From the IMG/VR virus record IMGVR_UViG_3300022218_000001, positions 7,179-71,178 of that record: 64,000 bases of DNA, one strand, 5' to 3'. This DNA comes from a virus (Duplodnaviria; Heunggongvirae; Uroviricota; Caudoviricetes). This document shows positions 17,317 to 60,317 of the stretch, piece after piece (position 1 is the stretch's first letter; every line of letters starts with the position of its first letter). Below the pieces are notes generated by a model, which worked only from the letters and a program-made list of their open reading frames with translations, did no database searches and had not been told where the DNA came from. The position numbers and the translations under genes are program-made.

Positions 17317-17344
17317 TTGAGCCCCCATGGCTCGTTCGTATAAT
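17317..17344 (+). promoter_or_regulatory. sigma70-like promoter (TTGAGC-16-TATAAT)
   Basis: Hexamers directly upstream of ATG 17356; implies near-leaderless transcript. Confidence 0.5.
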
Positions 17345-17355
17345 GTGAACAAACA

Positions 17356-19915: not shown

Positions 19916-20232
19916 TGACGACAACCCTGCCGCTCTACACAGGAGCCCGCCCGTGCCTTCGTTGCGGTTATTGCTGTAAACAGACCCCATGTTGGCTTGG
20001 GCGATGGACTCTGGATGAGACTCAGTGCTGGTACCTGGTAAAAGAACGCTCGGGTGAGTATTCCTGTTCAATTGCCGATGAGATTACAAAGAAGCGCGGA
20101 TGGGAGATAGCCCCTGCCTTCGGTGCTGGGTGTTGCTCACCCCTGAACCAGGACCGTAAAAAAATAGAGGAAAACGCGGATTTAGGGGTTGAACCTCCGC
20201 TGGTTCGCCCGTATAATACGGGCAAAGGTTGA
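19915..20232 (+). CDS. Cys-rich small protein
   Basis: CLRCGYCCKQTPC ... CC motifs. Confidence 0.35.
   Translation: MTTTLPLYTGARPCLRCGYCCKQTPCWLGRWTLDETQCWYLVKERSGEYSCSIADEITKKRGWEIAPAFGAGCCSPLNQDRKKIEENADLGVEPPLVRPYNTGKG
20189..20217 (+). promoter_or_regulatory. sigma70-like promoter (TTGAAC-17-TATAAT)
   Basis: Consensus hexamers inside the recurring TTCGCCCGTATAATACG motif; upstream of ATG 20283. Confidence 0.55.
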
Positions 20233-32869: not shown

Positions 32870-33766
32870 TTAGAGCAGGCCTGCCTCTTTGCACGACTTA
32901 CAGACAAATGGGAGCATCTGGTATTCTGCCCGGATCCAGTCTATTGCCCGGTGGGCCATCTTGGCTGCTTCGATGGGGTTCTCCAGGCACCAGACGATCT
33001 CCCGTATCATGGCTCTGTGGTTACCGATTTCGAACTCTCGGTACATGTGGGGGGCCAGCGGTGTCCAGTTCGTACGCTCAATGACCAAGGGGATGAGCTG
33101 GGGCGCTCCGAGCTGGACGATGCGGGTCGATGGCCAGTTGATACGGTCGCCGGTCCCGGAATGGACGTGAAGGAAGACCTTGGAGCGTAGACCTTCTGCG
33201 ATTTCGCCATCGGTGAGCTTCCGGTTGGTCCTGGGCTCAGCGTAGACATCGAACCCGTTGCGCTCCAGGGCGTTCACAGCACTCCAGCGCCGACTGCGCG
33301 AGCGGACCATGCCCAGAAAGCCTACGTCGTGCGTTGGGGTCTGCACAGGGCGGTCGTAGCTTGGGTGGTAGGCAAAAGGGCAGAAGGTTCGGCGGAAGCC
33401 GCGAGACTCGAATGTGGGGCCGTTCTGGGGGGCATAATCGAAAATCCAGTCCACCCTCTGGGCCTCCCAGCCCGCCCTTTTTCCGAATTTCCGCAATCTA
33501 TTGAACCAGGAGCGCCCGACTGTCTTGGTATAGACTTCGGATGTGTTGTAGAGGCAGACCGTTCCTGGCCATTTACCATGGACCTGGCTGGCTCCAGAGA
33601 CGCTCACTATAAAGAGGGTGTCTGTACGGTCGAGGCCCGTGATTGATGTCCCGCAGGTGACATCGGGGAAACCGAGCTGCCGGAAGCAATCAGCGAAGGC
33701 CTCTGCGACTTTATGCCCCTGCCAGGCGATAGCCCGGGGGCTGTAGAGTACGTGGATTGGTTTCAT
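32870..33766 (-). CDS. CgeB-like glycosyltransferase-like protein (paralog of 55813..56784)
   Basis: Shares DWIFDYAPQN, FCPFAYHPSYD and a C-terminal EAAKMAHRAIDWIRAEY-type block with the 55813 protein; glycosyltransferase assignment is tentative. Confidence 0.4.
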   Translation of the reverse strand: MKPIHVLYSPRAIAWQGHKVAEAFADCFRQLGFPDVTCGTSITGLDRTDTLFIVSVSGASQVHGKWPGTVCLYNTSEVYTKTVGRSWFNRLRKFGKRAGWEAQRVDWIFDYAPQNGPTFESRGFRRTFCPFAYHPSYDRPVQTPTHDVGFLGMVRSRSRRWSAVNALERNGFDVYAEPRTNRKLTDGEIAEGLRSKVFLHVHSGTGDRINWPSTRIVQLGAPQLIPLVIERTNWTPLAPHMYREFEIGNHRAMIREIVWCLENPIEAAKMAHRAIDWIRAEYQMLPFVCKSCKEAGLL

Positions 33767-34050
33767 GTAAGAAATAGGGCCTTTCCCCCTTTATTGGTTA
33801 GGTAGCACTCTGTCATGCAGCAGCGTTCTTTGCCGCGTTGAATGAGACCTTCTCGCTGAAGCTTTCCAAGAAACCCGCCTGCAGCAAAAGCCATCATCCC
33901 TCCCCGAGAGACACCCTTCGGCCCACATTTATGGCATCTATCGTGCCCGTCAGAGGTCGGCCACATCAACTCAGAGAATCGTGCAGGACGTATGCCTGGA
34001 CATCTTCTAATGATCATCAATGCGGTCCATTGAGCTTTTGTGATAATCAC
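33763..34050 (-). CDS. hypothetical small Cys-containing protein
   Basis: ATGA overlap in operon. Confidence 0.3.
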   Translation of the reverse strand: MIITKAQWTALMIIRRCPGIRPARFSELMWPTSDGHDRCHKCGPKGVSRGGMMAFAAGGFLGKLQREGLIQRGKERCCMTECYLTNKGGKALFLT

Positions 34051-34493
34051 CAGTGAAAGCCCTCCGGAATAATTGTGAACGAGTGGCCCGGGTCTATTGG
34101 ACGAAGCTCCCGGTACCAGAGCCGCTGCCTTGGTGCGGTGTGGCTTTCGCCAATATCTCGGAACCCGACCGATGCCCAGACGGCGTTCTCTTCGCGTCCG
34201 TTGAGGATCAGTCCATCAAGTTCTATTTCCGACAACTCCTTGGCGACTTCTTCCATCAAGAGCGAGCAGTACCCCTTCCCTCGCTCATTGGCAAGGGTTG
34301 TAATACCGCCAAGGCCCGCGACCTGCATGGTAGGCTCGTCGGGCCGCTTGAGTTTAAGGTCGAAGCAGTGAACGACAGAGACGAATTGGGTCTGGACCCA
34401 AAGTCCATAGACTGCATCCGGGTGGCGTGCCCACTTCCATTTGTGGAGATGGGCTACATTGCTTGGGGTCACAGGCTGCATGGTTGGTGGCAT
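34047..34493 (-). CDS. GNAT-family N-acetyltransferase
   Basis: ITTLANERGKGYCSLLMEEV acetyl-CoA binding (R/Q-x-x-G-x-G/A) motif. Confidence 0.55.
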   Translation of the reverse strand: MPPTMQPVTPSNVAHLHKWKWARHPDAVYGLWVQTQFVSVVHCFDLKLKRPDEPTMQVAGLGGITTLANERGKGYCSLLMEEVAKELSEIELDGLILNGREENAVWASVGFRDIGESHTAPRQRLWYRELRPIDPGHSFTIIPEGFHW

Positions 34494-35584
34494 GCAAACT
34501 CCTTTACGGCTTGAATGATTCGGCGACGGTCAGAAGGTGTCAGCCACCATCCGCAGGGGATGTTGACTTGACGACGTGAGAATTCATCGAGCCCCTTTGT
34601 TTTCTTGGCATCTGGGAATGCGGTCTTTTTGTCGTTTCGGCTATGAACCTCTGATGCATCAACCCCTCTCTTCGCGAGGTGAGCAATAAAGCCCTCTCGA
34701 TTCTCCACCAACATGGGGAATAACCAATACGAGCAGCCATCGTCGAATGGCAAGCAATGCACTCCGTTTTCAAGCTCAAGGAATGCATCACAGAAGTACT
34801 TGGCGTTTTCTTGTATCTGAGCAAGAAGCCCGGACATGCGCCGAAGGTTCGCAAGGCCGATCGACGCTGCCACATCGTTCATCCCGTACTTGTAGCCAGG
34901 CTCAACAATGTCTTGTCGGCAACGAAACGATGTGTTCTGGGTCCGATCGAGCCCGTACCAACGCAAGAGGAGTGCGCGTTCCCGGTTGACGCCAGGCACG
35001 GCCAGGGCTCCCCCGTCACCACCACAGTTGAGGTGTTTGATCGCTCCGAAGCTCCACATCCGGTAATGCCCCCAGCCTCGAGTCTTGAAGCTCCCAAGGC
35101 TGTGAGCCCCGTCTTGAATAACCGAGCAGCCATAGCTCAACTCGTCGGCTATTTCACGCAGTCGGACATAGTCACAGGTGCGGCCGGCCCAATCTACGGT
35201 GACGATGGCTCGAACGTTTCCATAGGAGTTGACCAGTTCTTCGACATGGTCTGCGTCGATAAGACCGCTCTCCGGGTCGACGTCAGCCCATACAATATTT
35301 GCGAAACGCTGAAGCAAAGGCACGTTAGTGGCTGTACAAGTCATCGGGGTCGAGATGACGGTCGAGCCTGGCTTGATTCCTGCGAGGTGGTACGCCAGGT
35401 CGAGCGCGTGGGTGCCTGTCATCGTTGCGAGGGGGACGGTATCGAGATCTTCGAAGCTCTGGAGGCCTTCTTCGAACTCTCTGACGCGCGGGCCTTGGCC
35501 TGTGTAGCCAGACATGAGCGTCTCTTCGACGCGCTTGATGGCGTCTGGGGCCATAAATACCTTGAAAAGTGGGATACGATCCAT
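34469..35584 (-). CDS. DegT/DnrJ/EryC1/StrS-family PLP-dependent sugar aminotransferase
   Basis: N-terminal MAPDAIKRVEETLMSGYTGQGPRVREFE and WSFGAIKHLNCGGDGGAL (PLP-lysine region); internal Met 35584 just below upstream stop. Confidence 0.8.
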   Translation of the reverse strand: MDRIPLFKVFMAPDAIKRVEETLMSGYTGQGPRVREFEEGLQSFEDLDTVPLATMTGTHALDLAYHLAGIKPGSTVISTPMTCTATNVPLLQRFANIVWADVDPESGLIDADHVEELVNSYGNVRAIVTVDWAGRTCDYVRLREIADELSYGCSVIQDGAHSLGSFKTRGWGHYRMWSFGAIKHLNCGGDGGALAVPGVNRERALLLRWYGLDRTQNTSFRCRQDIVEPGYKYGMNDVAASIGLANLRRMSGLLAQIQENAKYFCDAFLELENGVHCLPFDDGCSYWLFPMLVENREGFIAHLAKRGVDASEVHSRNDKKTAFPDAKKTKGLDEFSRRQVNIPCGWWLTPSDRRRIIQAVKEFACHQPCSL

Positions 35585-35588
35585 GCTT

Positions 35589-36224
35589 TCACTCCTTCTC
35601 TTTTGGGAACGGTGGGTCTTCCCAGCGGCTCGTGGGGTGGAGGAAGACCGTGCCGTCAATCAGGCCTCGAGCTGCGAACTCGTGGATGATCCTCCGATGG
35701 TCTGCCATCCGGTCTGGAGACGCTGGCCGCCAGTCAAATGGCGGCGCGTAGATTGTAGGCTCTCCGGGCGTTCTCTTAAAGTCTGCACCGGCTACGATTA
35801 TTTTCTCGAATGAACAGCGGCTCGCAATGAGGAGTGCTCGGCAGAAAGTACAGCCCTGCGGCCCAGGGAAGTTTGTCCCTTTGAAGCCAAAGAACTTCAC
35901 AGAGCGCCGGCGGATCAGCTCGTCGTTCTCGTGGTACGCAGCGTAGGAAATGACGCGCCATTTTGGATAAAGGGCGTCAAGCCGCTCTCGGAAGGACCTG
36001 TAGTTCTTCTTGTGAAGGAAGGAGTCAATGTGCCCCGCAACCCACATCGTCGAAGGCCGCCTGGCCCATTTCGGGATTTCGACGATGGCCGCATTTACCG
36101 CCCAGATTGTCCAATCCCGGTAGGGCTCGAAGTCTACATCTGCGAAACTCGGGCCACAGGAGGCGATGAGGAGCTTCTTGCCTCGTGATTTACCGTAGAG
36201 TCTCGATACGTCCCGCAGTGTCAT
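35589..36224 (-). CDS. MptE/DUF115-like (Maf-type) protein
   Basis: LLIASCGPSF glycine loop and FCRALLIASRCSFEKIIVAGADFK motif. Confidence 0.5.
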   Translation of the reverse strand: MTLRDVSRLYGKSRGKKLLIASCGPSFADVDFEPYRDWTIWAVNAAIVEIPKWARRPSTMWVAGHIDSFLHKKNYRSFRERLDALYPKWRVISYAAYHENDELIRRRSVKFFGFKGTNFPGPQGCTFCRALLIASRCSFEKIIVAGADFKRTPGEPTIYAPPFDWRPASPDRMADHRRIIHEFAARGLIDGTVFLHPTSRWEDPPFPKEKE

Positions 36225-36805
36225 TTCCAGTGCCTCAGTCCTGTCTTTACGATCGCCGATGCGCTTCGGATGAGCGCATCCGTTGCGTCCACCTCAAGCC
36301 ACGATGCCAGCTCGGCCACGACTTTGCCCGGGGTCTCGACGAGTTCATCGTAGCTGACGGCGAGCCCTGGGTACTGGGAGAAGAACCTGGCCACCTTCAT
36401 TTTGCAGCCATTGTACCGACGTGTGGCTCGGTCCCGAGCCCCTTTGTCCCCGCCCCTCTTCTTGACGAGGCTTTTCATTGTCGGCGCTTTCGGCCTTGTG
36501 GTCTCGATTGTGCGCCAGATATTCAGCCGATTGAGGCAGGGATAGAAGTGGCCCGTTGTGCCGTGGAACTTGAAGCCCGAGAGTCCCGGGCGATTGTGCT
36601 TTTCGACGAAGCGGTCAATGGCCAGGTTGTCTGGGCGTCGAAGCTCAAAGTTCATCTCCGGATCCATGAAGCTCCCGGTCGGCGTGCTCTTCGTCACCAG
36701 GCCACGATCGAACCTCACCCCAAGGTGGCTGACAATTGCAGCCACGACAGACGTCCCTGTTCTCGGTATCCCACAGACCACAACCACGCGGCTCTCCTCG
36801 CTCAT
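36221..36805 (-). CDS. sulfotransferase-like protein (PAPS-binding loop)
   Basis: VVVVCGIPRTGTSVVAAIV resembles 5'-PSB loop (PKSGTTW-type); KKRGGDKGARDRATRRY downstream; start at internal Met with ATGA overlap. Confidence 0.45.
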   Translation of the reverse strand: MSEESRVVVVCGIPRTGTSVVAAIVSHLGVRFDRGLVTKSTPTGSFMDPEMNFELRRPDNLAIDRFVEKHNRPGLSGFKFHGTTGHFYPCLNRLNIWRTIETTRPKAPTMKSLVKKRGGDKGARDRATRRYNGCKMKVARFFSQYPGLAVSYDELVETPGKVVAELASWLEVDATDALIRSASAIVKTGLRHWK

Positions 36806-37473
36806 GGCGTCCACCTCGGGAATGGAGCACCGCCGCGAATACGCGGCCAATCGCTCGTTGGGTGGAGACTGATGGCCCCGGAGAGAAGCCCCTGGCGTGC
36901 GTACTGAGCGATCCGGTCCCGTTGTTCCTTGAGGCGATACGGCACCGGAGCCTTCCACTCGAAGGGTGCCACGTAGTGTGGGGTTCCTCGCATGGGGGTG
37001 CCCTGGATGCGCTTTCGCTGCATGTCGGCGCCGGCAACGACGATCTGCGAGAAGCCCGAGCGCGATGCGGTGTGGAGGGCTCGGCAGAAGACTGAGCCCA
37101 TCGGCCCCGGATGCTCTGCCTGAGCGCCGTTGTAGAAGTAAGCCTCCTGCATTCGCCCCCGGAACCGGGGCATCCAGTACTCGTGGACGATTGCGCGCCA
37201 AACTGGGTAATTTTCGTCCACTCGTCGGCGAAACTCCCTCTGAAGGGGGTTGTCGTACACTGCATCGAGGTGGTTCGCGAACCAAAATGTACGGGGTGAG
37301 GCCAGCATCCATGCCGGCAGGGCGGTGATGGTGGCGTTGACGGCCCATACGTGCCAACCCCGGAACTGCTCCAGGTCGAGACGCGCGAAGCTGTGGCCAC
37401 AACAGAGGAGGGCCAGTCTTTCGGCACGGTACCGTCCGTAGAGCTTCTCTTCGATTCTTCCTTCCTTTTTCAT
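36802..37473 (-). CDS. MptE/DUF115-like (Maf-type) protein
   Basis: ALLCCGHSFARLDL loop and FCRALHTASRSGFSQIVVAGADMQ motif; first gene of minus-strand operon. Confidence 0.5.
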   Translation of the reverse strand: MKKEGRIEEKLYGRYRAERLALLCCGHSFARLDLEQFRGWHVWAVNATITALPAWMLASPRTFWFANHLDAVYDNPLQREFRRRVDENYPVWRAIVHEYWMPRFRGRMQEAYFYNGAQAEHPGPMGSVFCRALHTASRSGFSQIVVAGADMQRKRIQGTPMRGTPHYVAPFEWKAPVPYRLKEQRDRIAQYARQGLLSGAISLHPTSDWPRIRGGAPFPRWTP

Positions 37474-37569
37474 CCTTCTCCGTAGCCAGAAAAGAGACCC
37501 CCCTCTTTTATTTTTTTGATGGGGGGTGGGTCCTTTTCCAGGATCTCCGATTCTCAGTTTGAGGCAAGT

Positions 37570-38170
37570 CCGATTTGCTATGGACTTTTTCCGCGAGCGC
37601 GAGAGCCGATTTGCTATAGGCTTTTTCCGCGAGCGCGGAACTCCTCCAGTTGTGGGCTCGTCTTGCTGGCGAGCATGGCGTCCAGGGAGCTGAATGTTCT
37701 GGAGGCGTGCCAGGTTGCCCGATCGAATCTGCTCTCCACGGTTACGCAGAGCCCCCAGTCTGTGATTGCAACGACAATCCCCGCCGGCCCCCCGTTGCGA
37801 TGGAAGAGCTGCATTCCAATCTCAATCTCGATGCCGTCTGCTGTGCGTGGCGTGATTACGAGCATCTTCCCTTCGCTGTCAGTTTTCATCGATTCCTCTA
37901 TTCCCCGATTTGCTATAGACTTTTTCCGCGAGCGCGAAAGCCGATTTGCTATGGACTTTTCTCATGAGCGCGAGTTTGGGACCTGGGTGTCGTAGCCGAT
38001 GGCGGAAATGCCCGAGAGCCGATTTGCTATAGACTTTTTCCGCGAGCGCGAAAGCCGATTTGCTGTGGAATTTTGGCCAACGTAAAGTCAATTCCTTCAG
38101 AGGAAAACCGAAACCTATTTCGAGGCAAACCCGATTTGCTATAGGCATTTTCCGTAAGCGCGTGTTAGGG
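37570..38170. repeat. array of seven copies of a 36-bp direct repeat CCGATTTGCTATAGACTTTTTCCGCGAGCGCGAAAG
   Basis: Copies near 37570, 37606 (tandem), 37905, 37941 (tandem), 38019, 38055, 38130; partial dyad TTTCCGCG-A-GCGCGAAA inside unit. Confidence 0.85.
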
Positions 38171-38244
38171 GGCCTCGATGACGTGGCTATCGGGCTCCTC
38201 GGGCATCCTGGGCTCCTCGGAATGGCGAAAATCGACCAAACACG

Positions 38245-38340
38245 TAAGTTTCGATGAGACCTCGACTTACGTAAGCTTAGACGAGACGCCAGTTTACGAC
38301 GTTGCCGTAAGCTTTGATGGTAGCTATAGTTATGTAACCA
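38245..38340. repeat. three imperfect 27-bp tandem repeats (GTAAGYTT...TTAC)
   Basis: gtaagtttcgatgagacctcgacttac / gtaagcttagacgagacgccagtttac / gtaagctttgatggtagctatagttat. Confidence 0.6.
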
Positions 38341-38593
38341 TCGCAAACACGGGAGTTTACAGACTTCGGGCGATGAGGCTCCGAAGGACTCCCGAGAGGC
38401 GATGCCACAATATGATTTCATCTGAGCTTTCTGTCTTGGTTGCTTTTCCTCCTGCGGTTTTTGGTTTCGCAGATCTCAGATGCGCGATGTCGCGCGCCGA
38501 TTATGGTTCGCTGAGACTCGCCCGTATTATACGAGCGAGGAGATAAAATTTCGACAAAAAAACTTTTTTCTTGTTTTTTTCCTCATTATCCCT

Positions 38594-38610
38594 TGTTTCG
38601 CCCGTATAAT
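38594..38610 (+). promoter_or_regulatory. promoter-like conserved motif TTTCGCCCGTATAATATG with AT-rich upstream element
   Basis: Same motif as at 20201-20220; -35 weak but preceded by A/T tracts. Confidence 0.4.
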
Positions 38611-38670
38611 ATGGACGAACTAAGTAAATCGGGACAGATCCATTCTACTCAAAACCGCAGGAGGCGAACG

Positions 38671-38904
38671 ATGGCTGGCACGATGGGAATCGACCAAAAC
38701 GGAACATGTTGGCACGAACTAGGCAAGAACCCGCGCGCCGAATTGTTAAGGCGTTTAGACAGGAAATCGGCGAGGAAATTTTACCGCGATTCCAAAGACG
38801 GGGGTTGTCGCCATGTTGGCTATATTGTTTCCGGATTGTGGATCGAACTTTTTACAGTCTGCCCTTGGGATAGCCCGGGACAGAAAACCGCAGGAGGCGA
38901 ATGA
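38671..38904 (+). CDS. hypothetical small protein
   Basis: RBS gcaggagg before ATG 38671. Confidence 0.35.
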   Translation: MAGTMGIDQNGTCWHELGKNPRAELLRRLDRKSARKFYRDSKDGGCRHVGYIVSGLWIELFTVCPWDSPGQKTAGGE

Positions 38905-43691: not shown

Positions 43692-44369
43692 CGCATCGCC
43701 CGTAGTATACAGGCACAACAGCGCCGCTTGTGGGCTCGATGTGGCCATCGAGGTTCAGCCTCAGACCGATCGATCTATTAGACTTACGGAAAATCCTGCG
43801 ACACCGACGGAAATCTGAACCATCATCCCATCGCGCGTTTTGTTCAGGACGCATGATGATAGGCCAGCAACGATCGCATCTCGAGGCTCCCACCACCATG
43901 TGCCCACATCCATCGGCGCCCCCCCCGTTTCTCCGTTTCAATGCTGCGGGGCGACCCCCTTCCACCGTACCGCATCGCCGATGCGGCGCATGGTACTGCG
44001 GAGCCCATCGCATCGCCCCGACCTACTGCGGCGCGCGCCTCCTGAACCCTTCCGCCCGACGTCGAAACCGTCGAAAACGTCGAAAACGTCGAGCCTCCTG
44101 CGGCGCATCGCCGATGCGATGACTCCCCGATGCGGGTTGCGCGCCCTACGCTCCCTTCTATGGAGCCTCGAAGAAGCCTCGACGCATCTGTCGCGCGCGC
44201 CTCTCAAAGCCTCTCAGAGGGGCGCCTCGAGGCTCAGAGGTGGCTGATTTCTCGATGCTAAGGATCGAGATGTCCATTCTGGCCGTGGCGATGGACTGAG
44301 CATGCGTAGTGCATCCAAAAAGGGTTTTTTGACTTTGAGGCTTGACTTTCTCGCCAGAACCGCATCGCC
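43692..44369. repeat. five dispersed copies of CGCATCGCC (two as near-palindrome CGCATCGCCGATGCG) plus 3x tandem GTCGAAAAC
   Basis: Copies at about 43692, 43971, 44009, 44104, 44361; tandem at 44059-44092; region is noncoding. Confidence 0.7.
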
Positions 44370-51997: not shown

Positions 51998-52108
51998 GCA
52001 TCGCTGTCTGCCGCTCTCGGCCCCAGTCCACTGGTGTAAACGGCCGTGGTGTTGGAACCCACGGTGGACCGGGAGCGGCGATTCTTATCCTATATTTTGG
52101 TGGGAAGA

Positions 52109-52744
52109 ATGTTGAAACAGATCTCACGGGACTGGATTGATCCAGGCACCTGCGGTTCTGGGGGGAAGCTTCAGCCTGTTTGGCTTTCGAAGCTATTCGA
52201 GGCATCCGAGATCGTTGAGGGCGAAACTGTCCTCGACTATGGGTGTGGAAACGGGCGGCTTGCGAACTTCATCAGCTCAAAGATTGAGCAGTTTCAGTAT
52301 TTTGGCTTGGAGCTGTGGAGCAGCCACGGGAGGGATTGCATTTCAGATGCGAGAGTGTGGCTCGGTGAGGACCCTCGCGTTCAGTTTGGATTCATTGATG
52401 CTGAGCTTGAGGACGAGGCTATCTCTAAGGCTGACGTTGTTGTCCTTGGGAGCATACTCCCTCATCTGTCGGCCGATGATTCCATCACGCTCTTACAGAA
52501 ATTCATCCCGCTACTTGACCGTGGTGGGCGCATTTGCTTTAGCTGTAAGATAGAGGAACGACAGAAGAATTCTGGGTACAGCAAGGCTTACGGGGTCAAC
52601 GGCTGCTTCAACTGGATCATTCATTCCAAGCTGTTCCTTGGCCGGATCAGAAGGGAAGTGGCTCCTTTGCGGAAATGCCCGGTTCATTTTAAGCATCAGA
52701 GATATTCGCATGATTTCTTCATGGTTGAGAGGCCGAGACAATGA
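52109..52744 (+). CDS. class I SAM-dependent methyltransferase
   Basis: VLDYGCGNGRLANF motif I; acidic motif II region. Confidence 0.55.
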   Translation: MLKQISRDWIDPGTCGSGGKLQPVWLSKLFEASEIVEGETVLDYGCGNGRLANFISSKIEQFQYFGLELWSSHGRDCISDARVWLGEDPRVQFGFIDAELEDEAISKADVVVLGSILPHLSADDSITLLQKFIPLLDRGGRICFSCKIEERQKNSGYSKAYGVNGCFNWIIHSKLFLGRIRREVAPLRKCPVHFKHQRYSHDFFMVERPRQ

Positions 52745-52995
52745 AAGAAGACGCGGTCCCTCACGCCCTTGACTGCTGTGCTGGACGGTATCATTTTGCG
52801 GAGGCCAAGTTGACTGAGAAGGAGAGGATCCGGGGGATCACGGCGATTGCCCGCGTGAAGCCTCTTGACCGCGCAGAGCGGCGCGCTGAGCGGCTCGCAC
52901 GGAAGAAAAGAGAACGTCGCATTTATCGTGAACTTCTGGCAAGGTATGCAGCAGTAGCCGAAGATCAGGATATTTTCAATCCCGGGAGGGAATAA
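52741..52995 (+). CDS. hypothetical small basic protein
   Basis: ATGA overlap. Confidence 0.3.
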   Translation: MKEDAVPHALDCCAGRYHFAEAKLTEKERIRGITAIARVKPLDRAERRAERLARKKRERRIYRELLARYAAVAEDQDIFNPGRE

Positions 52996-53005
52996 GGAGT
53001 CGACG

Positions 53006-53830
53006 ATGCAGGCTGTTATCCTTGCTGCTGGATGGGGGACTCGAATAGGTGAGCTTGGAGAGGTGACGCCCAAGCCCCTTTTGCCTCTTGGTCGGGGGTG
53101 CGTCATTGACAGTGTGCTCACTTCGTTGTGGGTTGAGCCAGTCACTCAAATTAGGGTAGTCCACAATAACCATCGAAGCCGGGTGGCTGGGAGCTGGCCA
53201 AAGAGGTTCAAGACCTGGGCTCAGTCTGTCCGCTGGACTCCCGAGCCGGGGCACAATCCGGAGCACCCCCGTATCCGCCTCATCAATGACCAAGTCCAAG
53301 ACCCGGAGCAGAAGATTGGATCGGTCGGCGACATGGCTTTCGCTGTCCGCAAGAACTCAAGGCGAGATCTGCCTATCGTTTTTGCCTGCGGCGATGATAT
53401 TTACTCGAATTCTCACCTCGAGGAGCTGGCCGGTGAGGGTAGTGCGATCGTCGTACGGAACGTTAACGACATGGACCCCCTTGTGGAGAGCGCCAAGCCG
53501 TCCAGGGTGGACGTCAAGGCAGGAATGGTCGATGAGGTTGGCCTTGGCGCAGAGAATACTCCGTGGCGCTTCTGTGGCCCCCTGTGGCTCGCTGGGGAGG
53601 ACATGGGCTTCCTCTTGGAATATGCCGACATCTGGCAGAAGGCCGGAGTTGTACCGGACTCGATTGGCGAATTCATCGAAGCCCTGGTCTCATCTGGTCG
53701 TCCGGTTCGAGCAGTCAAAGCCTCTACGTTTTTTTGGACTGTTGGGAACAAGGATCTCTACAAGATGATAAAAAAGAGGCATGCGCCAATACGTCGAGAG
53801 GTTAGGCGCCTTCGGAGGGTAAACACATGA
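53006..53830 (+). CDS. sugar-1-phosphate nucleotidyltransferase (NTP_transferase family)
   Basis: MQAVILAAGWGTRIGELGEVTPKPLLPL canonical G-x-G-T-R ... K-P-L-L motif; RBS aaggag. Confidence 0.75.
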   Translation: MQAVILAAGWGTRIGELGEVTPKPLLPLGRGCVIDSVLTSLWVEPVTQIRVVHNNHRSRVAGSWPKRFKTWAQSVRWTPEPGHNPEHPRIRLINDQVQDPEQKIGSVGDMAFAVRKNSRRDLPIVFACGDDIYSNSHLEELAGEGSAIVVRNVNDMDPLVESAKPSRVDVKAGMVDEVGLGAENTPWRFCGPLWLAGEDMGFLLEYADIWQKAGVVPDSIGEFIEALVSSGRPVRAVKASTFFWTVGNKDLYKMIKKRHAPIRREVRRLRRVNT

Positions 53831-54516
53831 GTGCTGTGGTTGAACGAAGGGAGCAATTCTGTGAACAAACAACGGAGCTTACACATGGCTCTATTACGCA
53901 GGAAGATTGGGCAGCTCTCCGCCGGACCCTCTTTGATGTCCATGAAGCCTTTTGTTCGCTACCCCGGCCCGGCCTCATTGTGGAAGTCGGAACCCTTGGT
54001 GGACGAACAACGAGAGGGATCTTCGAAGTCCTCAATCGGCTTCGGTGGGATGTCCCTGATGTCGTGACGATCGATACCGATAAAAGGTGCTTGGGTGACG
54101 CAGTCTTCAATCAGTGCCATGGGTTTAAGAATTCCCTCCGCACTTTCCATGGCCGGTCGACAGACTGGAAGCCAGTAGAGCCAATTTGGTGGGCATTTGT
54201 TGATGGCTGTCACTGCCATGAGTGTGTCCTTGCGGACCTGATGCATCTTTCTCGGCACGTCCCTGTTGATGGAGTTATTTGCCTGCACGACGCAGGAGAT
54301 CAAAGAAGCCTGGAGATGCTTGTTCATGAGCGGTATCACGGCTGTGATGGAGTGAGCCGGCTCTATGGGGTCACAAGTGCGATCGATGAATGGCTTGGGT
54401 GCTTTGACGATTTCACATGGGAGCAATTAGAGTGCGTTAAGGCGCAGGAGCGCCCTCGTGGCTCTCCAACGCCACTCTTCGGTGGAGTCCAAGCCTTTAG
54501 GAGGAAAAGGCCGTGA
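53827..54516 (+). CDS. TylF/CmcI-like class I SAM methyltransferase (paralog 1)
   Basis: IVEVGTLGGRTT and FVDGCHCHECVLADL...ICLHD motif (DG-x-H ... hydrophobic-HD). Confidence 0.5.
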   Translation: MSAVVERREQFCEQTTELTHGSITQEDWAALRRTLFDVHEAFCSLPRPGLIVEVGTLGGRTTRGIFEVLNRLRWDVPDVVTIDTDKRCLGDAVFNQCHGFKNSLRTFHGRSTDWKPVEPIWWAFVDGCHCHECVLADLMHLSRHVPVDGVICLHDAGDQRSLEMLVHERYHGCDGVSRLYGVTSAIDEWLGCFDDFTWEQLECVKAQERPRGSPTPLFGGVQAFRRKRP

Positions 54517-55145
54517 AGCTGAATGCTGACTTCGTTGAAAGAATCAAGGCCTATGAAAAGATGGGCCGGCGTTCTTCGCTGGCGCCGACCCATTGGAAGG
54601 ACCACCCGCCATCGATGTTTGAATACATCAAAAAAGTGCTGCCGGCCCCTCATGTTGTTGTTGAAGTAGGATGCTCGCATGGCCGTTGGTCACGAATGAT
54701 GTTGGAATCATTTCCATCGATTGAGCGGTTCTTCGGGATTGATGTCTGGGGTCCAACCGGTACGAGCCGTTGCAGAGGGGCTGACTGGAAGCATGACTTT
54801 GTTTACTTGGCGACAAGCTGGTTTGACCATGTCCGGCCTTGGCTCTTTGAAAAAGCGTTCCCGCTGCCAGGCGACCAAAGGCTGTGGTGCGATGCCTTTC
54901 CAGTTGAAGTCGATATGGTGTTCCTCGATGGGAACCACTCGAAGGAGGTCGTTTTGAATGACCTGCATCGGTGGTGGCCAAAGATTCGATCGGGGGGCTT
55001 AGTCATGGGCCATGACTACTACGATGAAGGTCCAAACATCCGTGTGGCTTGTGAGAATGTCGTCCATGCTGCAAGGGAGTTTTTTGGTGTTGATGGATAC
55101 GAGGCTCACAATGAGTTTCGGGCTTTTTGCAAGATCAAAGATTAG
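54513..55145 (+). CDS. TylF/CmcI-like class I SAM methyltransferase (paralog 2)
   Basis: VVVEVGCSHGRWS; FLDGNHSKEVVLNDLHRWWPKIRSGGLVMGHDY. Confidence 0.6.
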   Translation: MKLNADFVERIKAYEKMGRRSSLAPTHWKDHPPSMFEYIKKVLPAPHVVVEVGCSHGRWSRMMLESFPSIERFFGIDVWGPTGTSRCRGADWKHDFVYLATSWFDHVRPWLFEKAFPLPGDQRLWCDAFPVEVDMVFLDGNHSKEVVLNDLHRWWPKIRSGGLVMGHDYYDEGPNIRVACENVVHAAREFFGVDGYEAHNEFRAFCKIKD

Positions 55146-55816
55146 GAGATGAAGAGATGGTGGATAAGGCTAAAGCGGAAGTCAACGCGCGGAGGCGTGC
55201 ACGCATCAGGGCACAGTCAGGAATCGTGGAGAAGGGGGAGGCTCCTCCGGCATCCGAGCTTGGAGAGTACAGTGAGAATTACATTTCCACTATAATTCCG
55301 GTGAAGGACTTCTCTCCGGCGAACAACTACAAAGCTCAGATGTGGGAGATCATCAAAGAGCACTTTGGAGACAAGGAGCCTGGCATCGCTGTCGAAGTTG
55401 GGGCAAAACGTGGGCACTGGGCGGCTGGCCTGCTTCAGGGCACGAAGAAGACGCAGCTCTTCTGCGTAGACCCATGGGCTGGTCGTCAGGGTCGCCAGAG
55501 CATGGCAGTGTGGTTCAAGCGGTGCGCTCCGCATGTTTTCACGCGATGCCATCCGCTGGTAGGGACATCGCTTGATTGGTCTCGATACTTCCCATACTTC
55601 GTAGATCTTCTTTTCGTCAATGGGCTCCACGATGCGAAGAGCGTGCAGCTCGACCTTCAACGGTGGGCTCCTCGCGTGAAGCCTGGGGGGCTAATCATCG
55701 GTCATGACTATAACGAGGCAGACATTAAGAAGGCTGTCGATGACTTTTTTCCAGATCTGACTGGCGTCCAGAAGCTTGGCCCGGGGGACGCTGTCTCTTT
55801 TTGGAAAGCTTTATGA
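55127..55816 (+). CDS. TylF/CmcI-like class I SAM methyltransferase (paralog 3)
   Basis: IAVEVGAKRGHWA; FVNGLHDAKSVQLDLQRWAPRVKPGGLIIGHDY. Confidence 0.6.
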   Translation: MQDQRLGDEEMVDKAKAEVNARRRARIRAQSGIVEKGEAPPASELGEYSENYISTIIPVKDFSPANNYKAQMWEIIKEHFGDKEPGIAVEVGAKRGHWAAGLLQGTKKTQLFCVDPWAGRQGRQSMAVWFKRCAPHVFTRCHPLVGTSLDWSRYFPYFVDLLFVNGLHDAKSVQLDLQRWAPRVKPGGLIIGHDYNEADIKKAVDDFFPDLTGVQKLGPGDAVSFWKAL

Positions 55817-56784
55817 GCAAGAGCTTCAAACGCATTGTCATTCCGATGCGCAGGGCGATGGTGCATTGGGGGAAAGATTTATTCGCTCTTGCGCTTGCGT
55901 CGTGCTTCAGGTCGCTCGGCTTTAAAGTCATCATGCCGGATGTTAGTGATGTTGGCCCCGGCGACTTCACGCGGAATGACTTTGTTCTTTTTGTAGACTG
56001 GGCATCCGCTCGATCTAAGTTTTCGAATGCGCTGGTGTATGCCCGTCGAAATAAAGCGACGACAGCTCATTACAACATGGAGCCTATAGCACCGGCTCCA
56101 TGGCTTCTTGACTCATTCAACTCAAGATCCAAGCGGTACCGAGAGAAGATTTCCGGCAAGTTTGATATAATCTTCGATTACAACCAAAACACAACAGACA
56201 TCTTGAAGGCGAGGGGGGAGAATGCATATCTTCTCCCAATGGGGTACCATGAAAGCTACGAGGTCGCGTGGCTTCCTCCGTTCGATGTTGGTGCGCATTG
56301 GCTCGGCCTCGAGTACCACCCACCTCCGAAGGGTGCTGAGTACGATCCAAGAATTCTTGACCGTAGGGGCGAGATTTGTAAAGCGATCCGGGAGGCCGGG
56401 GCTCCTTGCTCCAGCCATTTCTTCCGAGGGCTCCCAGGCCGCCTCGACCTAATGCGCAAGATGCTCTCCACCCCAGGTGTCCACCTCAATCTGCATCGCC
56501 CGGGGTCTCCATTTCAGTTCGGCGGAATCCGTGTTATTCAGCTCTTGATGTCAAATCGGAGATTCGTCCTTTCTGAGCCATGCTCTTGGTACCCAGAAGG
56601 GCTTACCCCGGGCGTTCATTGGGATGTTGCTGAGCCAGAACAAATCCCAGAGCATGTTTTGTATTGGCTGAAGAAGCCGATTAAGAGAGAGGCGGTCGCC
56701 AGGGCTGGGTATGAGTTCATTCGAGCCAACCACCGGCTCGATGTCTTTCTCAAGCAGGCTTTAATAGAAGCGGGAGTTATGTAA
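55813..56784 (+). CDS. CgeB-like glycosyltransferase-like protein (paralog of 32870..33766)
   Basis: ATGA overlap; shared blocks with minus-strand paralog; C-terminal KREAVARAGYEFIRANH resembles GT-B C-terminal helices. Confidence 0.4.
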   Translation: MSKSFKRIVIPMRRAMVHWGKDLFALALASCFRSLGFKVIMPDVSDVGPGDFTRNDFVLFVDWASARSKFSNALVYARRNKATTAHYNMEPIAPAPWLLDSFNSRSKRYREKISGKFDIIFDYNQNTTDILKARGENAYLLPMGYHESYEVAWLPPFDVGAHWLGLEYHPPPKGAEYDPRILDRRGEICKAIREAGAPCSSHFFRGLPGRLDLMRKMLSTPGVHLNLHRPGSPFQFGGIRVIQLLMSNRRFVLSEPCSWYPEGLTPGVHWDVAEPEQIPEHVLYWLKKPIKREAVARAGYEFIRANHRLDVFLKQALIEAGVM

Positions 56785-56786
56785 AA

Positions 56787-57143
56787 ATGGCAAAAGTGAT
56801 TTGTTTTGACATCGATGGTTTCTTGACAGTGGACTCAGACATGAAGCGTGCAGATTTGTCAGGAAGCTACATTTATCGAGAGCCTCGAGTTCGTGCAAAG
56901 GAGGTGATGCTTCGAGCCTATGAGGCCGGGTGGTATGTGTTGCTCTTTACTGGTCGCAGAGAGCAGCAACGGCGGATTACTGAGGATTGGCTTCAATCAC
57001 ATGGCTTCCCCTATCATCATCTCCAGATGGGGAAGCCGTACTTCACATACGTCATGGACGATCGCGTTCTTGGCGCTTCAGTAAATGAGCAATTGGACGC
57101 ATTCGAAAAGGTTCTTGAAGAAGAGAAAGCGGATGCAGAGTAA
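56787..57143 (+). CDS. HAD-superfamily phosphatase
   Basis: Motif I ICFDIDGFL (DxD), later T and K, motif IV MDDR. Confidence 0.5.
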   Translation: MAKVICFDIDGFLTVDSDMKRADLSGSYIYREPRVRAKEVMLRAYEAGWYVLLFTGRREQQRRITEDWLQSHGFPYHHLQMGKPYFTYVMDDRVLGASVNEQLDAFEKVLEEEKADAE

Positions 57144-57172
57144 GGGCCGGTGGTTGATCAGAGGAGGTCAAA

Positions 57173-58099
57173 ATGCCTATCAAAAGAGAAGGCTCAAAGG
57201 AGCAGCGAAGGCGTGAGAAGGCAGAGCGCATCCGGGTGGCAATGGAGCGCAGAAAGGGTAAGCGCCCACCGCGCCCTCCTGAATCGGCTCTGGTAAAGGG
57301 TGCCAAGGGGAATGTCCATATGCGGCGCAGGGTGTCGCATTTTTGGGGTAAATATCCGGACTCTGATATTTTTGTCTGTGGGACAGGAACGAGTTTGGCC
57401 GGTTTCGACTGGACGCGGCTTGGAGGCCGAATTACCATAGGCCTTAATGACGCGCTCAAGATTCCCGGGTTTGCACCAGCGTTCTCACTCTTTAGCGATA
57501 TTGGAATTTGGAGCCGATATCGCAATCTGACGCTTGACAAACGAACAATGGTTGTATGCCAGGGCCGGTCACGCGATCAGTTTATGAAGTACGAGAAATG
57601 CAGCTTCAAAGATCAAGTCTGGCACTTCAACCAACAGGCCACTGCGAAGGCTTGCGACTCAAAGAACGACGATCTCTATTGCGCAAGAACGATCGCTTGC
57701 GCTGGCATCATGATGGCTTACAAGCTGGGTGCTCGACGTGTCTTTCTCTTGGGGGTGGACGGCTACAAGCTTTCCGGCAAGGACGGCGGCCAATATTACC
57801 ACGACGGATCTGGGAAGGGGCCAGAGCGCCGCAAAGAGCAGGGCGTCCCGGGAACTACTCAGGTGGTGCAAGACCGTCATGGCTGGTGGGAAACAAACAT
57901 GAAGGAGCTGCGAGACTGGTTCGACAGCCTGGGTGTGTACCAAGAGCCGTTCCGAAAGGGCCGTCACTTCGGGTCGAATGTCTTTACTCTTTCAGGGCTT
58001 TCTACAATACCGCAATGGGAAAAGGTGAAAGTGAAGACCGTTCTTGGGAGGGGGTGTTTTGATACTAAACACAGATCTGTCCGGCATGCTGGACAGTAG
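57173..58099 (+). CDS. MptE/DUF115-like (Maf-type) protein
   Basis: FVCGTGTSL loop; ACAGIMMAYKLGARRVFLLGVDGY motif. Confidence 0.5.
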   Translation: MPIKREGSKEQRRREKAERIRVAMERRKGKRPPRPPESALVKGAKGNVHMRRRVSHFWGKYPDSDIFVCGTGTSLAGFDWTRLGGRITIGLNDALKIPGFAPAFSLFSDIGIWSRYRNLTLDKRTMVVCQGRSRDQFMKYEKCSFKDQVWHFNQQATAKACDSKNDDLYCARTIACAGIMMAYKLGARRVFLLGVDGYKLSGKDGGQYYHDGSGKGPERRKEQGVPGTTQVVQDRHGWWETNMKELRDWFDSLGVYQEPFRKGRHFGSNVFTLSGLSTIPQWEKVKVKTVLGRGCFDTKHRSVRHAGQ

Positions 58100-58124
58100 G
58101 TACCTATCGGCTGGAGGCTAAGCT

Positions 58125-58739
58125 TTGGAAGTTGCAGACCTTATTGGCAAAGTCAAGATACCGCAGTGCCATCCTTTAGAGCTTGCTCCATTTTTGCGTT
58201 CGGTGCTGTATCCGGTTCAGAACGGCATCCCAGGGGTGATGGTAGAAATCGGGACGAACAAGGGGAAGAGCCTGGCTTGTCTTCTACAGACATTAAATCT
58301 TCTTGGTCAGCGTCGAGAGGTTTTTTGTATCGATCCATTTGACAATGCGGCCCGGTTCTTCCCTTCCAGGGTTGAGAAGTTCGCTGGTGAAATTCCAGCG
58401 CAGCTCATTCGCTTGTCATCGCAAGACCCAGAGGCAGTTAAGCGGCTCAAAGGTTCCCCAATCGCATGGCTTCTCATCGACGGTTGCCATTGCTACGATT
58501 GTGTCCTGGCTGATATTGACAGATGGATTCCTGAAGTCATTTCTGGTGGTACGGTCGTTTTTCATGACTTTTGCCCTCGTTTCAATTATGGGAAGCGTGA
58601 TTTTTGTGCTGCGGCAGGCAGCAAACGCCGCTGGGGTGTTTGGCCAGCGTTCAAGATAGCCAAGGCCGCGCGGGCATTGGAGCAGGTCGAACAGAGCCCT
58701 CGCCGAACGCCCGGAATGGCCGTTTTTATGAAGGTTTAA
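58125..58739 (+). CDS. TylF/CmcI-like class I SAM methyltransferase (paralog 4)
   Basis: VMVEIGTNKGKS; LIDGCHCYDCVLADIDRWIPEVISGGTVVFHDF. Confidence 0.6.
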   Translation: MEVADLIGKVKIPQCHPLELAPFLRSVLYPVQNGIPGVMVEIGTNKGKSLACLLQTLNLLGQRREVFCIDPFDNAARFFPSRVEKFAGEIPAQLIRLSSQDPEAVKRLKGSPIAWLLIDGCHCYDCVLADIDRWIPEVISGGTVVFHDFCPRFNYGKRDFCAAAGSKRRWGVWPAFKIAKAARALEQVEQSPRRTPGMAVFMKV

Positions 58740-58741
58740 TC

Positions 58742-60287: not shown

Positions 60288-60317
60288 ACATTAAAGTAAG
60301 GAGTGCGATAGCCGAGG

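Follow-up and report, generated by a model that had tools for sequence, protein, structure and literature searches.

The divergent junction at 37474-38670 of the window, by which we mean the whole analysed stretch of 64,000 nucleotides of phage DNA, carries an array of seven 36-bp repeat units. The reading that we tentatively favour is that this array is a protein-recognised cis-control element in the transcribed leader of a leftward sugar-modification operon. It may resemble a JUMPstart/ops element or an operator in action, yet it would be a member of neither class. As relatives keep the repeat at the matching place, a control element is most likely, rather than a replication origin. The array lies downstream of the leftward promoter and within the untranslated leader, so that it would act on the leftward unit only. 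The regulatory hub at a divergent junction, which an earlier reading of the sequence alone (the sequence-only reading) had proposed, is supported. The same reading had let the array control divergent transcription. This part is not supported, since the divergent promoters have palindromic operators of their own about 350 nt away.

A scan of the window with a 16-nt core of the unit, allowing up to three mismatches, yielded seven matches against 0.30 expected, and none of 100 shuffles reached seven, which bears out the sevenfold occurrence described before. The seven units are co-oriented on the plus strand (37570, 37606, 37905, 37941, 38019, 38055 and 38131) and confined to 37570-38166 within the 64-kb window. 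In a search with nhmmer that covered 80.9 kb of the 108,471-bp genome, or 75%, no further copy was found. The phage genome is circular, 108.5 kb in length. The minus-strand orientation of the array, used in the following list, was deduced from the direction of the promoter.

37570-37641, minus strand: units w1 (37570-37605) and w2 (37606-37641), a head-to-tail pair with the minus-strand reading CTYTCGCGCTCGCGGAAAAAGYCYATAGCAAATCGG
37905-37976, minus strand: units w3 (37905-37940, GGAAAAA type) and w4 (37941-37976, GAGAAAA type), the gene-proximal module
38019-38090, minus strand: units w5 (38019-38054) and w6 (38055-38090, decayed; nhmmer E = 3e-5)
38131-38166, minus strand: unit w7, single, from repeat-family comparison

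Instead of the two tandem pairs reported initially there are three head-to-tail pairs, the third of which (38019/38055) has the decayed partner, and unit w7 at 38131 is a single, unpaired copy. The remaining gaps measure 263, 42 and 40 nt and not 40-80 nt. The units are organised as two-unit modules with a super-period of about 114 bp, and each unit retains a conserved A-rich tract. Units w7 and w1 share about 30 more gene-proximal bases (38101-38130 and 37540-37569), with 74% identity over the 62-nt copies. This common flank is what remains of the stretch by which a unit was formerly attached to the gene start. Homology to the flank at the gene start extends to the flanks that follow w7, w1 and unit rB of the related phage L007, and decayed copies are found in the window (w6) as well as in L007 (rA). 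The array has clearly grown by tandem duplication, both of single units and of blocks of about 114 bp comprising two units and a 42-nt flank. Assemblies break at this locus, which is variable, rich in repeats and non-coding.

A partial dyad had been noticed in the unit, which gained no support from covariation or folding. The minimum free energy (MFE) z-scores of the units lie between -1.8 and +0.8, with only the copy from L016 lower (-2.95), and 63-68% of cells pair, which is not above shuffled or slid controls in two registers. The conservation of the unit is one of sequence, not of structure. An RNA hairpin in the unit was rejected on the MFE z-scores together with the covariation counts in the two registers, and a search of Rfam at E <= 10 returned only chance-level matches to miRNAs, sRNAs and snoRNAs. 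Coding repeats were rejected as well: the ORFs of 180, 159 and 122 aa that run through the units score negative on codon use. That the repeats could be a miniature element occurring elsewhere had been raised from the outset. No multi-copy matches were detected in public collections and, within the 75% of the phage genome covered, the family is restricted to a single locus; in the absence of copies elsewhere the units are therefore not a dispersed mobile element, and a MITE or REP element was discarded. A tandem-core scan yielded only unrelated 18-bp repeats, a scan for the pair pattern in gene-strand orientation no matches, a tandem scan with GATTTGCTA only coding 12-18-nt repeats and chance matches, and BLAST of a unit trimer against plasmids and phages chance matches only.

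The region had been described as devoid of a credible ORF. The 263-nt gap, however, is occupied by an ORF whose codon use is that of a gene.

37614-37889, minus strand: 91-aa ORFan, flanked by a repeat pair on either side (codon score 0.097, GC3 0.71)

Its codon score resembles that of the operon neighbours (0.10-0.11), and it is preceded by a GAGGA Shine-Dalgarno sequence. Module w3/w4 ends 15 nt 5' of its ATG and its stop codon falls within unit w2. Among 5.8 billion proteins the 91-aa protein matched only itself, comparison with Pfam and PADLOC gave no match, and the AF2 model was unusable (pLDDT 55). The relatives do not contain this ORF, which therefore represents an indel bounded by repeats; recombination between units would account for the extra ORFan in this phage.

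The operon that follows the array in leftward direction spans about 4.6 kb and includes two MptE-like genes. It makes or modifies sugars.

36802-37473, minus strand: 223-aa gene, sialyltransferase-like/MptE-like, first conserved gene of the leftward operon (AF2 and fold search)
36224-36805: sulfotransferase-like ORF, downstream of the 223-aa gene
Further downstream, ending at 32870: a 211-aa paralog, a DegT aminotransferase, a GNAT, a 95-aa ORF and a 298-aa ORF
37475-37527, minus strand: two hairpins between unit w1 and the 223-aa gene (from folding)

For the 223-aa protein an AF2 model with a pLDDT of 80 and a pTM of 0.82 was obtained, the best PDB fold of which is ST8SiaIII (probability 0.98); the MptE-like match is faint. 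An identity as type III toxin or Rep was rejected by Pfam, PADLOC and the fold search. In this phage, 96 nt separate the w2/w1 pair from the 223-aa gene. The first hairpin in this interval (37497-37527) consists of a G/C stem and a large A-rich loop followed by UCUCUUUUCU, and from these features we infer that it looks like a terminator; the terminator scan made no call here because the loop exceeds 8 nt. The second hairpin (37475-37494) pairs this U-rich UCUCUUUUCU tail with the GGAGAAGG ribosome-binding site.

Upstream of the array, the junction contains the following elements.

38518-38554, minus strand: leftward promoter P_L, TCGAAA-17-TATAAT (10/12, sigma-70-like consensus scan), overlapping a palindromic operator at 38518-38538
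38598-38618, plus strand: rightward promoter/operator copy with a -10 TATAAT at 38606-38611 (motif scan)
38244-38338, no strand assigned: three loose 27-32-nt GTAAG...TTAC units (imperfect hairpins)
38448-38461, minus strand: AAAACCGCAGGAGG box, identical to the ribosome-binding boxes at 38651 and 38884

P_L points into the repeat array, which begins about 350 nt downstream of it. The rightward copy precedes the first rightward gene (38671-38904) by about 55 nt, and an AT-rich spacer (38555-38597) separates the two promoters. The two promoter-like CGCCCGTATAATA motifs previously placed at 38526 and 38605 are present, but they are in fact 21-bp near-palindromes (38518-38538 and 38598-38618), both of which contain TATAAT or TATTAT. 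A scan with the 14-nt motif gave eight matches over two strands against 0.32 expected (12534, 20205/20212, 38518/38525, 38598/38605 and 43696), to which a looser pattern adds 17332. The CGCCCGTATAATA motifs form a class of putative palindromic TATAAT promoter/operators that recurs elsewhere in the genome. The three 27-bp repeats of the sequence-only reading were found at 38244, 38271 and 38307, but they are loose, with 19/27, 18/27 and 15/27 identical positions. They sit in a strongly structured stretch (z = -3.6, minus strand) and have no counterpart in L007 or L017, which makes them phage-specific. The AAAACCGCAGGAGG box at 38448 is probably a relic of a lost gene start, as the next ATG is 31 nt away.

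Related phages were retrieved via TerL and an alignment of a 292-aa protein; the two flanking proteins, used as queries in IMG/VR, found no relatives, and BLAST of the whole region retrieved no phage sequence. Three related lineages carry the unit family at the matching position. The comparison of copy number among relatives, suggested beforehand, resulted in 7, 5 and 6 units across lineages: L007 and L012-L015 harbor five units (spaced 36, 78, 113 and 36 nt) and L017 six diverged ones (spaced 37, 35, 57, 115 and 35 nt), while L016 contains at least 1.5 units. Modules w3/w4 of the window, rD/rE of L007 and the final pair of L017 are orthologous. For this gene-proximal pair, the identity of the window is 80% to L007 (7763-7834 of L007) and 62-73% to L017. 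For comparison, the adjacent gene is 72-78% identical between lineages, whereas the spacers and the rest of the leader reach 45-53% against a null of 45-50%. Besides the units, only the promoters are shared. Selection therefore seems to act on the units only, although this comparison covers three or four close lineages whose shared ancestry inflates the apparent conservation. The binding array supposed earlier is supported by this behaviour of the repeats, which is that of such an array under selection.

The layout is likewise common to the lineages. A sigma-70-like promoter directed toward the array was called independently in the window, L007 and L017 (10/12, 10/12 and 9/12), and no promoter-like sites were called inside these three arrays. 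The order GAGAAA type, GGAAAA type, gene is kept in three lineages, and the last unit lies 15 nt (window), 11 nt (L007) or about 1-3 nt (L017) from a start codon. In the two relatives with a visible junction, the array ends 1-11 nt before the start codon of the same sialyltransferase-like gene, always in one orientation. A called terminator follows the unit in L016 and precedes further operon genes; between array and gene in L007 and L017 there is no terminator. The first gene of L017 has a weak ribosome-binding site.

On the favoured reading of a cis-control element, the 36-bp units would be recognition sites for a predicted sequence-specific factor, either as DNA or as RNA. Transcription would begin at the conserved TATAAT promoter P_L (38554->38526), and the polymerase would traverse 350-540 nt of non-conserved leader before it reaches the array, the last two-unit module of which adjoins the ribosome-binding region of the first gene. 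Occupancy of a core of about 23 nt, GRRAAANNYCYATAGCAAATCGG on the non-template/RNA strand, would then gate the entry of RNA polymerase and ribosome into the operon. We infer post-initiation activation of the JUMPstart/ops kind as the preferred sub-mechanism: a factor loaded at the units would let the elongation complex pass the terminator-like hairpins, which in the window as well as in L016 come after the units and before further operon genes, and would aid the start of translation. A roadblock or a translational repressor at the same sites is a close alternative. Known ops/JUMPstart elements are single-copy and are not known in 5-7 tandem copies. Like them, the array is located shortly before the first gene of a long sugar-related operon, inside the untranslated leader, has a specific orientation and is conserved as sequence instead of RNA structure, and such control would explain both hairpin read-through and the weak ribosome-binding site in L017. 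Sugar operons of this class, among them polysaccharide operons, use leader-borne ops elements, which belong with RfaH and other specialised NusG paralogs (PMC6391919). In contrast to these, the array lacks the ops consensus GGCGGTAG, is phage-borne and consists of 36-bp units in 5-7 copies and two-unit modules with no NusG paralog identified. The ops core GGCGGTAGnnTG was not detected on the non-template strand of 37474-38670 with up to two mismatches, and window-wide it occurs 53 times versus 49 by chance. No NusG-like or regulator gene adjoins the array, and no NusG paralog was noticed in 80.9 kb.

Several of the same observations would also match a trans-acting RNA or a function at the DNA level (origin, centromere). 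An RNA of this type is an unlikely proposal: the P_L transcript would be cut in the A-tract into monomers of about 36 nt, one complete monomer per two-unit module, which sequester a host protein in the manner of a type III antitoxin mimic such as the pseudo-ToxI of phage PhiTE; that the target is a ToxN-like abortive-infection RNase is equally doubtful. Rather unlikely is also the further step that the array founds a new family of processed repeat RNAs, a constitutive, lineage-conserved counterpart of pseudo-ToxI serving as trans decoy for a host RNA-binding defence protein. The proposal draws on a 36-nt period that matches ToxI_Pa (related antitoxins use 34-35 nt; PMC5086642), on non-coding copies joined head-to-tail without spacer, on the conserved A-rich tract in every unit, on a copy number that varies by lineage and on a phage layout of promoter, repeats, terminator-like hairpin and ORF, including the unit with the called terminator in L016; laboratory-evolved pseudo-ToxI sets a precedent for phage-borne decoy repeats (PMC3475682). 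Type III toxin-antitoxin loci possess an uninterrupted 34-45-nt tandem array directly after the promoter, followed by a terminator and a ToxN, CptN or TenpN gene (ToxIN/CptIN/TenpIN); the toxin excises the antitoxin monomer, which adopts a pseudoknot fold. Here, the array is split into pairs by spacers of 40-42 and 77 nt and by one gene, P_L lies more than 350 nt upstream, and the hairpin is present while the endoribonuclease is absent, the downstream ORF having a sialyltransferase-like fold and no ToxN, Pfam or PADLOC match. Furthermore, L007 and L017 lack the terminator, nested-structure tests gave no structural or covariation signal, and no similar repeat was found in 185,579 genomes, plasmids or phages. 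Under a loose gapped score the similarity to ToxI_Pa seemed significant, but a stricter score with genomic windows as null reduced it to a 9-10-mer. The promoter and this match are on opposite strands, and an equal score is reached by 35 of 2802 random 90-nt genomic windows (1.2%). Far less probable is a CRISPR-like mini-array or an RNA anti-CRISPR made of a solitary repeat (Racr) in imitation of a host CRISPR repeat. The 36-nt repeats, two intervals of spacer length (40 and 42 nt) and the phage-borne location downstream of a promoter recall solitary repeat units (SRUs; PMC10651486), but the full set of intervals (0, 0, 0, 40, 42 and 263 nt) comprises three pairs with zero-length spacers, in agreement with the earlier statement that the array is not CRISPR-like. 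The 40-42-nt "spacers" are duplicated flank and not acquired DNA, a protospacer-like match never exceeds a 13-mer, no cas genes occur in 80.9 kb, and the position adjoining a start codon is conserved. An exact pattern with 21 specified bases, which diverged repeats escape, found one single-copy chance match in a Paenibacillus coding region among 185,579 genomes and none in viral and JGI metagenome contigs.

It is also unlikely that each unit is a promoter, be it for a dedicated sigma factor or phage RNA polymerase or an activator-dependent one, which would produce short or leaderless mRNAs and gene shuffling like that of the PeSL cassettes reportedly found in T4-type phages, with transcription start sites predicted 5-8 nt after ATAGCAAAT in each unit. 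The units end 1-15 nt before start codons, TAGCAT stands 7 nt upstream of the ATG in L017, and the inserted 91-aa ORF has a unit pair of its own while the 223-aa gene keeps another. T7-type promoters contain CTATAG, which the CYATAG of the unit recalls. Against this, no sigma-70-like site was called in the arrays of the window, L007 and L017, unlike a sigma-70 promoter array, the -7 T is missing from the putative -10 in two lineages, 75% of the genome holds no other copy, unlike a phage promoter class, neither an RNA polymerase nor a sigma gene was seen in 80.9 kb, and units in the window and L016 directly precede terminator-like hairpins. As in PeSL, small ORFs are flanked by short, repeated regulatory units that favour gain or loss of cassettes, but PeSL units have a sigma-70 promoter and a stable stem-loop, neither of which was found in the array. 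The stoperators said to occur in cluster A mycobacteriophages are likewise asymmetric, transcription-oriented sites near gene starts; however, they are 13 bp long and genome-wide, whereas the array family occupies one locus. Sigma-54, sigma-28, MotA-box, lambda CII and IHF motifs, compared by eye, seemed not to fit. Improbable is an iteron-type origin or centromere, with an initiator or partition protein bound to the repeats and opening aided by the AT-rich tract and the promoters. In lactococcal phages, intergenic regions of this kind contain the origins, and the locus, at which assemblies break, offers multiple direct repeats, abundant hairpins and a 72% AT tract between divergent promoters. 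The origin proposed initially is not upheld: of the neighbours, the conserved gene is glycosyltransferase-like and no Rep, Par or initiator gene and the other an ORFan, helicase and primase genes are found at 3-11 kb of the window (27-34 kb off), and DnaA-like 9-mers with up to two mismatches stay at chance level (one in 1.3 kb versus 2 per kb window-wide). The AT-rich stretch is limited to about 40 bp (38560-38600) some 400 nt from the array, and the recommended check of GC skew showed no inflection beyond the switch of gene strand, the cumulative curve merely reaching a plateau over the minus-strand genes. Compared with the iterons of plasmid and phage origins and with type II/III centromeres (pSC101, P1, R1 parC and P4 ori/crr), the array shares co-oriented direct repeats upstream of an operon and nearby promoters with an AT-rich tract, but its unit has about twice the usual iteron length, is out of helical phase (3.4 turns) and lies downstream of the promoter instead of overlapping it. 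The fixed orientation and the end 1-11 nt before a start codon in relatives are not demanded of an origin, which leaves them unexplained. Just as improbable is a neutral or selfish expansion, i.e., functionless products of slippage or unequal crossover or recombination scars. Segmental duplication is clear from the flanks after w7, w1 and rB, copies w6 and rA are decayed, and the ORFan indel is bounded by repeats; nevertheless, the conservation of orthologous units equals that of coding sequence, with intervals that have diverged to random level, three lineages share one order of unit types, and no copies occur elsewhere in the 75% of the genome covered or in public collections.

The element is conserved to the degree of coding sequence, yet no described RNA family, operator, iteron or CRISPR repeat was found to match it. 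The array illustrates evolution by duplication of 36-bp units and blocks of about 114 bp and by capture of an ORFan through recombination between units. The decoy-RNA reading is less likely; if true, it would be of wider interest for phage counter-defence. If the control reading is true, environmental phages of about 105-109 kb, which hold an unusually large set of sugar-modifying genes, control an auxiliary sugar-modification operon via a multi-copy leader element. The 23-nt core and the two-unit module would then be a handle for finding the factor that times the expression of phage glycan genes and, should this factor act after initiation, the array would provide a phage example of ops-like control.

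Seven copies of the 36-bp unit CCGATTTGCTATAGACTTTTTCCGCGAGCGCGAAAG are present, always on the plus strand, and the 64-kb window contains no others. A search with its 16-nt core, allowing up to three mismatches, returned seven matches against 0.30 expected, a number reached by none of the shuffles, which bears out the seven direct repeats described in the sequence-only reading. The region had been misdescribed in part, however: two tandem pairs were claimed, and the copies form three head-to-tail pairs and a singleton, with the pair partner at 38055 decayed. Best kept are the first 14-16 bases of the unit; the second half is decayed in copies 4, 6 and 7. The statement that the region contains no credible ORF has to be withdrawn, since a 91-aa ORF between the repeats is gene-like in codon score (0.097 per codon) and GC3 (0.71), in which it resembles the neighbouring minus-strand genes. 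It is preceded by a GAGGA ribosome-binding site and has no homologs among 5.8 billion proteins. ORFs of 180, 159 and 122 aa running through the repeats were rejected as genes because of negative codon scores.

Features of the window (positions, strand, description)
32870-37473 (-): leftward operon, left of the repeat region
36224-36805 (-): 194-aa sulfotransferase-like ORF, weak PAPS-loop match (E = 2e-4, below the Pfam cut-off)
37570, 37606, 37905, 37941, 38019, 38055, 38131 (+): starts of the 36-bp units w1 to w7
37614-37889 (-): 91-aa ORF within the 263-nt gap separating the first two repeat pairs
38448-38461 (-), 38651-38664 (+), 38884-38897 (+): identical copies of the 14-nt ribosome-binding box AAAACCGCAGGAGG
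38518-38538, 38598-38618: 21-bp near-palindromes
12534, 20205/20212, 38518/38525, 38598/38605, 43696: matches to the 14-nt motif
12534-12547 (-), 17332-17345 (+), 20205-20225, 38518-38538, 38598-38618, 43696-43709 (+): palindrome TCGCCCGTATAATAYGGGCGA with central TATAAT

A 13-nt exact word (GCGGAAATGCCCG, 37990-38002) in the 42-nt interval between w4 and w5 recurs at 52669 and was treated as chance, since about 0.07 such matches are expected. Tandem repeats of 9 bp lie at 44059-44092 (ACGTCGAAA, 3.8 copies) and 38190-38220 (TCGGGCTCC, 3.4 copies).

The window is phage DNA encoding helicases, a primase-polymerase, a ParB-like methyltransferase, the large terminase subunit and a portal protein. 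Its source contig (ena:ERZ27296478:k141_3134530) comprises 108,612 bp, and the 141-bp overlap between its ends indicates that the genome assembles as a 108,471-bp circle, with the junction at window position 36942/36943. The leftward operon encodes a 223-aa protein, the sulfotransferase-like ORF, a 211-aa paralog of the 223-aa protein, a DegT-family aminotransferase, a GNAT acetyltransferase and two other ORFs. For the 223-aa protein Pfam gave a faint MptE-like match only; its predicted structure (pLDDT 80, pTM 0.82) has the sialyltransferase ST8SiaIII as best Foldseek match (probability 0.98). The 194-aa ORF, which shares its first 4 nt with the stop end of the 223-aa gene, is masked in the ORF list by a spurious 393-aa ORF. 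Altogether the phage carries a very large sugar and modification gene set (window 32870-37473 and L018, i.e., window ~52000-64000 plus the next 8 kb) with about nine Methyltransf_24-type methyltransferases, sulfotransferases, NeuB, CMP-sugar synthetase-like enzymes, a GHMP kinase, a glycosyltransferase and several MptE-like proteins. A further minus-strand block, composed of small genes and long gaps (L019:1244-7570, within the 9 kb preceding the window), is filled with 12-nt-periodic repeats such as TCGACGACNNNN, where gene calls leave gaps of 0.5-1.1 kb; the periodicity suggests four-residue peptide repeats.

The two promoter-like motifs of the earlier reading do exist, as 21-bp near-palindromes of the form TCGCCCGTATAATAYGGRCGA, each containing TATAAT or TATTAT, but they are not specific to this region. 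A scan of both strands with the 14-nt motif gave eight matches against 0.32 expected, a looser pattern added one at 17332, and the motif is also found in the relatives L004/L007 and L017. The clearest cases lie upstream of gene blocks, and the rightward copy (38598-38618) as well as the one at 20205 has a ribosome-binding site ~55-60 nt downstream. This recurrence and spacing identify the palindromes as a general promoter/operator class of the phage, which looks like a single repressor-controlled promoter class. The two copies of the region face away from each other, and the leftward one was called as a sigma-70-like promoter (TCGAAA-17-TATAAT, 10/12) directed into the repeat array ~350 nt away. 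The intervening leader folds strongly overall (z = -3.6) and contains the three 27-nt repeats noted before, which are present as loose hairpin units. Copies of the box AAAACCGCAGGAGG precede the first two rightward genes; the copy at 38448-38461, downstream of the leftward promoter, has no start codon within 31 nt and is probably a relic ribosome-binding box. The units are followed by a terminator-like hairpin (37497-37527) and then by one pairing with the ribosome-binding site: at 37475-37494 (-) a U-rich tail after a G/C hairpin can form 8 bp with GGAGAAGG, the ribosome-binding site of the 223-aa gene, and could be a translational gate particular to this phage.

Searches of viral, metagenome and reference-genome collections with the unit itself revealed no relative; a single Paenibacillus match was discarded as one copy in coding sequence. 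An unrelated AT-rich viral contig (L024:983-1056, IMGVR_UViG_3300033141_004953) carries two tandem 37-nt copies of ATTTAAGATTTGCTAAAGCTCCTGAACTTTTAAAAAT, which are like type III antitoxin repeats in period and A-rich end. Relatives were reached via proteins: the large terminase led to three syntenic IMG/VR contigs (85% identity), alignment of a 292-aa protein to the 51-kb JGI contig L007, and proteins homologous to the 223-aa one (75-78% identity) to L012-L015, of the L007 species, and to the lineages L017 and L016. Comparison of copy number, as proposed earlier, gave seven units in the window, five in L007 and six in L017.

Repeat arrays of related phages
L007: five units, spacing 36, 78, 113, 36 nt; 11 nt to the start codon of the homologous gene; same divergent promoter pair as the window, ~850 nt from the gene
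L017: six more diverged units (CGCACGRARAAYGCCYATAGCAWTC), spacing 37, 35, 57, 115, 35 nt; last unit reaches the ATG; promoter pair ~800 nt upstream
L016: contig begins inside a unit pair; unit, then called terminator and convergent gene, operon beyond

Besides the units, only the two promoters can be aligned between lineages. The gene-proximal two-unit module is 80% identical between window and L007 and 62-73% identical to that of L017, spacers and remaining leader reach 45-53% against a null of 45-50%, and the adjacent gene 72-78%. The invariant core, ~23 nt when read on the gene strand, is GRRAAANNYCYATAGCAAATCGG. In three lineages a GAGAAA-type unit is followed by a GGAAAA-type unit and then the gene, and anchor distances of 112-115 nt, corresponding to two units plus a ~42-nt spacer, recur in all three. 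The flanks after w7, w1 and the L007 unit rB are homologous to the L007 flank between the final unit and the start of the gene, which indicates that the array grew as single units and ~114-bp blocks were duplicated. L007 and L017 lack the 91-aa ORFan, which sits between two modules in the window phage and so represents an indel bounded by repeats. In the L007 leader ~85 bp of alternating purine-pyrimidine (CATG/CGCG) repeats (L007:8092-8177) replace the hairpin repeats of the window; CACAGGGCGC repeats occur as well, a 101-bp segment recurs 221 bp downstream with 97% identity (L007:8263-8363 and 8484-8584), and several assemblies break at these leader repeats.

A partial dyad had been seen in the unit, and a conserved structure is not supported. 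Minimum free energies lie at z = -1.8 to +0.8 relative to shuffles, with a lower value (-2.95) only in the L016 copy, the hairpin register differs between phages, and in the 13-unit alignment only 63-68% of the cells pair, which does not exceed shuffled or slid controls. What is conserved is therefore the sequence, suggesting that a protein recognises the units. The same conservation against a randomised background contradicts a purely neutral expansion.

A trans-acting decoy RNA of the type III antitoxin kind shares with such antitoxins the 36-nt period, head-to-tail copies and A-tract, and in the window phage a promoter, the repeats, a terminator-like hairpin and an ORF also follow one another in the same order (PMC5086642, PMC3475682). 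We consider it unlikely, because the downstream ORF is not a toxin, the arrays are interrupted, and the likeness to ToxI shrinks to a shared 9-10-mer, on the strand opposite the promoter, with a score that 1.2% of windows drawn at random from the genome also reach. The short distance from unit to start codon would suit units that are themselves promoters, but consensus scans were negative and the copies then expected elsewhere were not found in the 75% of the genome examined. In the relatives, the scan called the leftward-equivalent promoter directed into the array (L007 10/12, L017 9/12) and none inside the arrays of L007 and L017. Of the two functions suggested earlier, the iteron-like replication origin is not supported: there is no adjacent initiator, DnaA boxes are no commoner than chance, the GC-skew check gave no signal, and the array's orientation and abutment to a start codon would be left unexplained. 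The binding array is supported. The array is also not CRISPR-like, as had been stated, given zero-length spacers, spacers that arose by duplication, and no matching repeat in the genomes and contigs scanned.

We tentatively propose, as a possibility still short of an even chance, that the array controls the leftward sugar-modification operon in cis and that a putative sequence-specific factor binds it. This reading derives from a single locus with fixed orientation and selection on sequence, from the position downstream of a conserved promoter in an otherwise drifting untranslated leader, and from an end a few nucleotides ahead of a start codon. At the units, post-initiation activation like that by ops/JUMPstart would be preferred, with a roadblock or translational repressor as a close alternative. 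The ops core is absent here, and we know of no description of multi-copy tandem ops-like sites. Post-initiation activation is preferred because terminator-like hairpins follow the units in the window phage and L016, because no ribosome-binding site can be recognised for the first gene in L017, and because of the precedent in long sugar-operon leaders, where ops/JUMPstart elements bring in specialised NusG paralogs, which also aid ribosome loading (PMC6391919). The 36-bp element belongs to none of the testable named families and is most aptly seen as a novel form of cis-control repeat, of the leader-borne or operator type.
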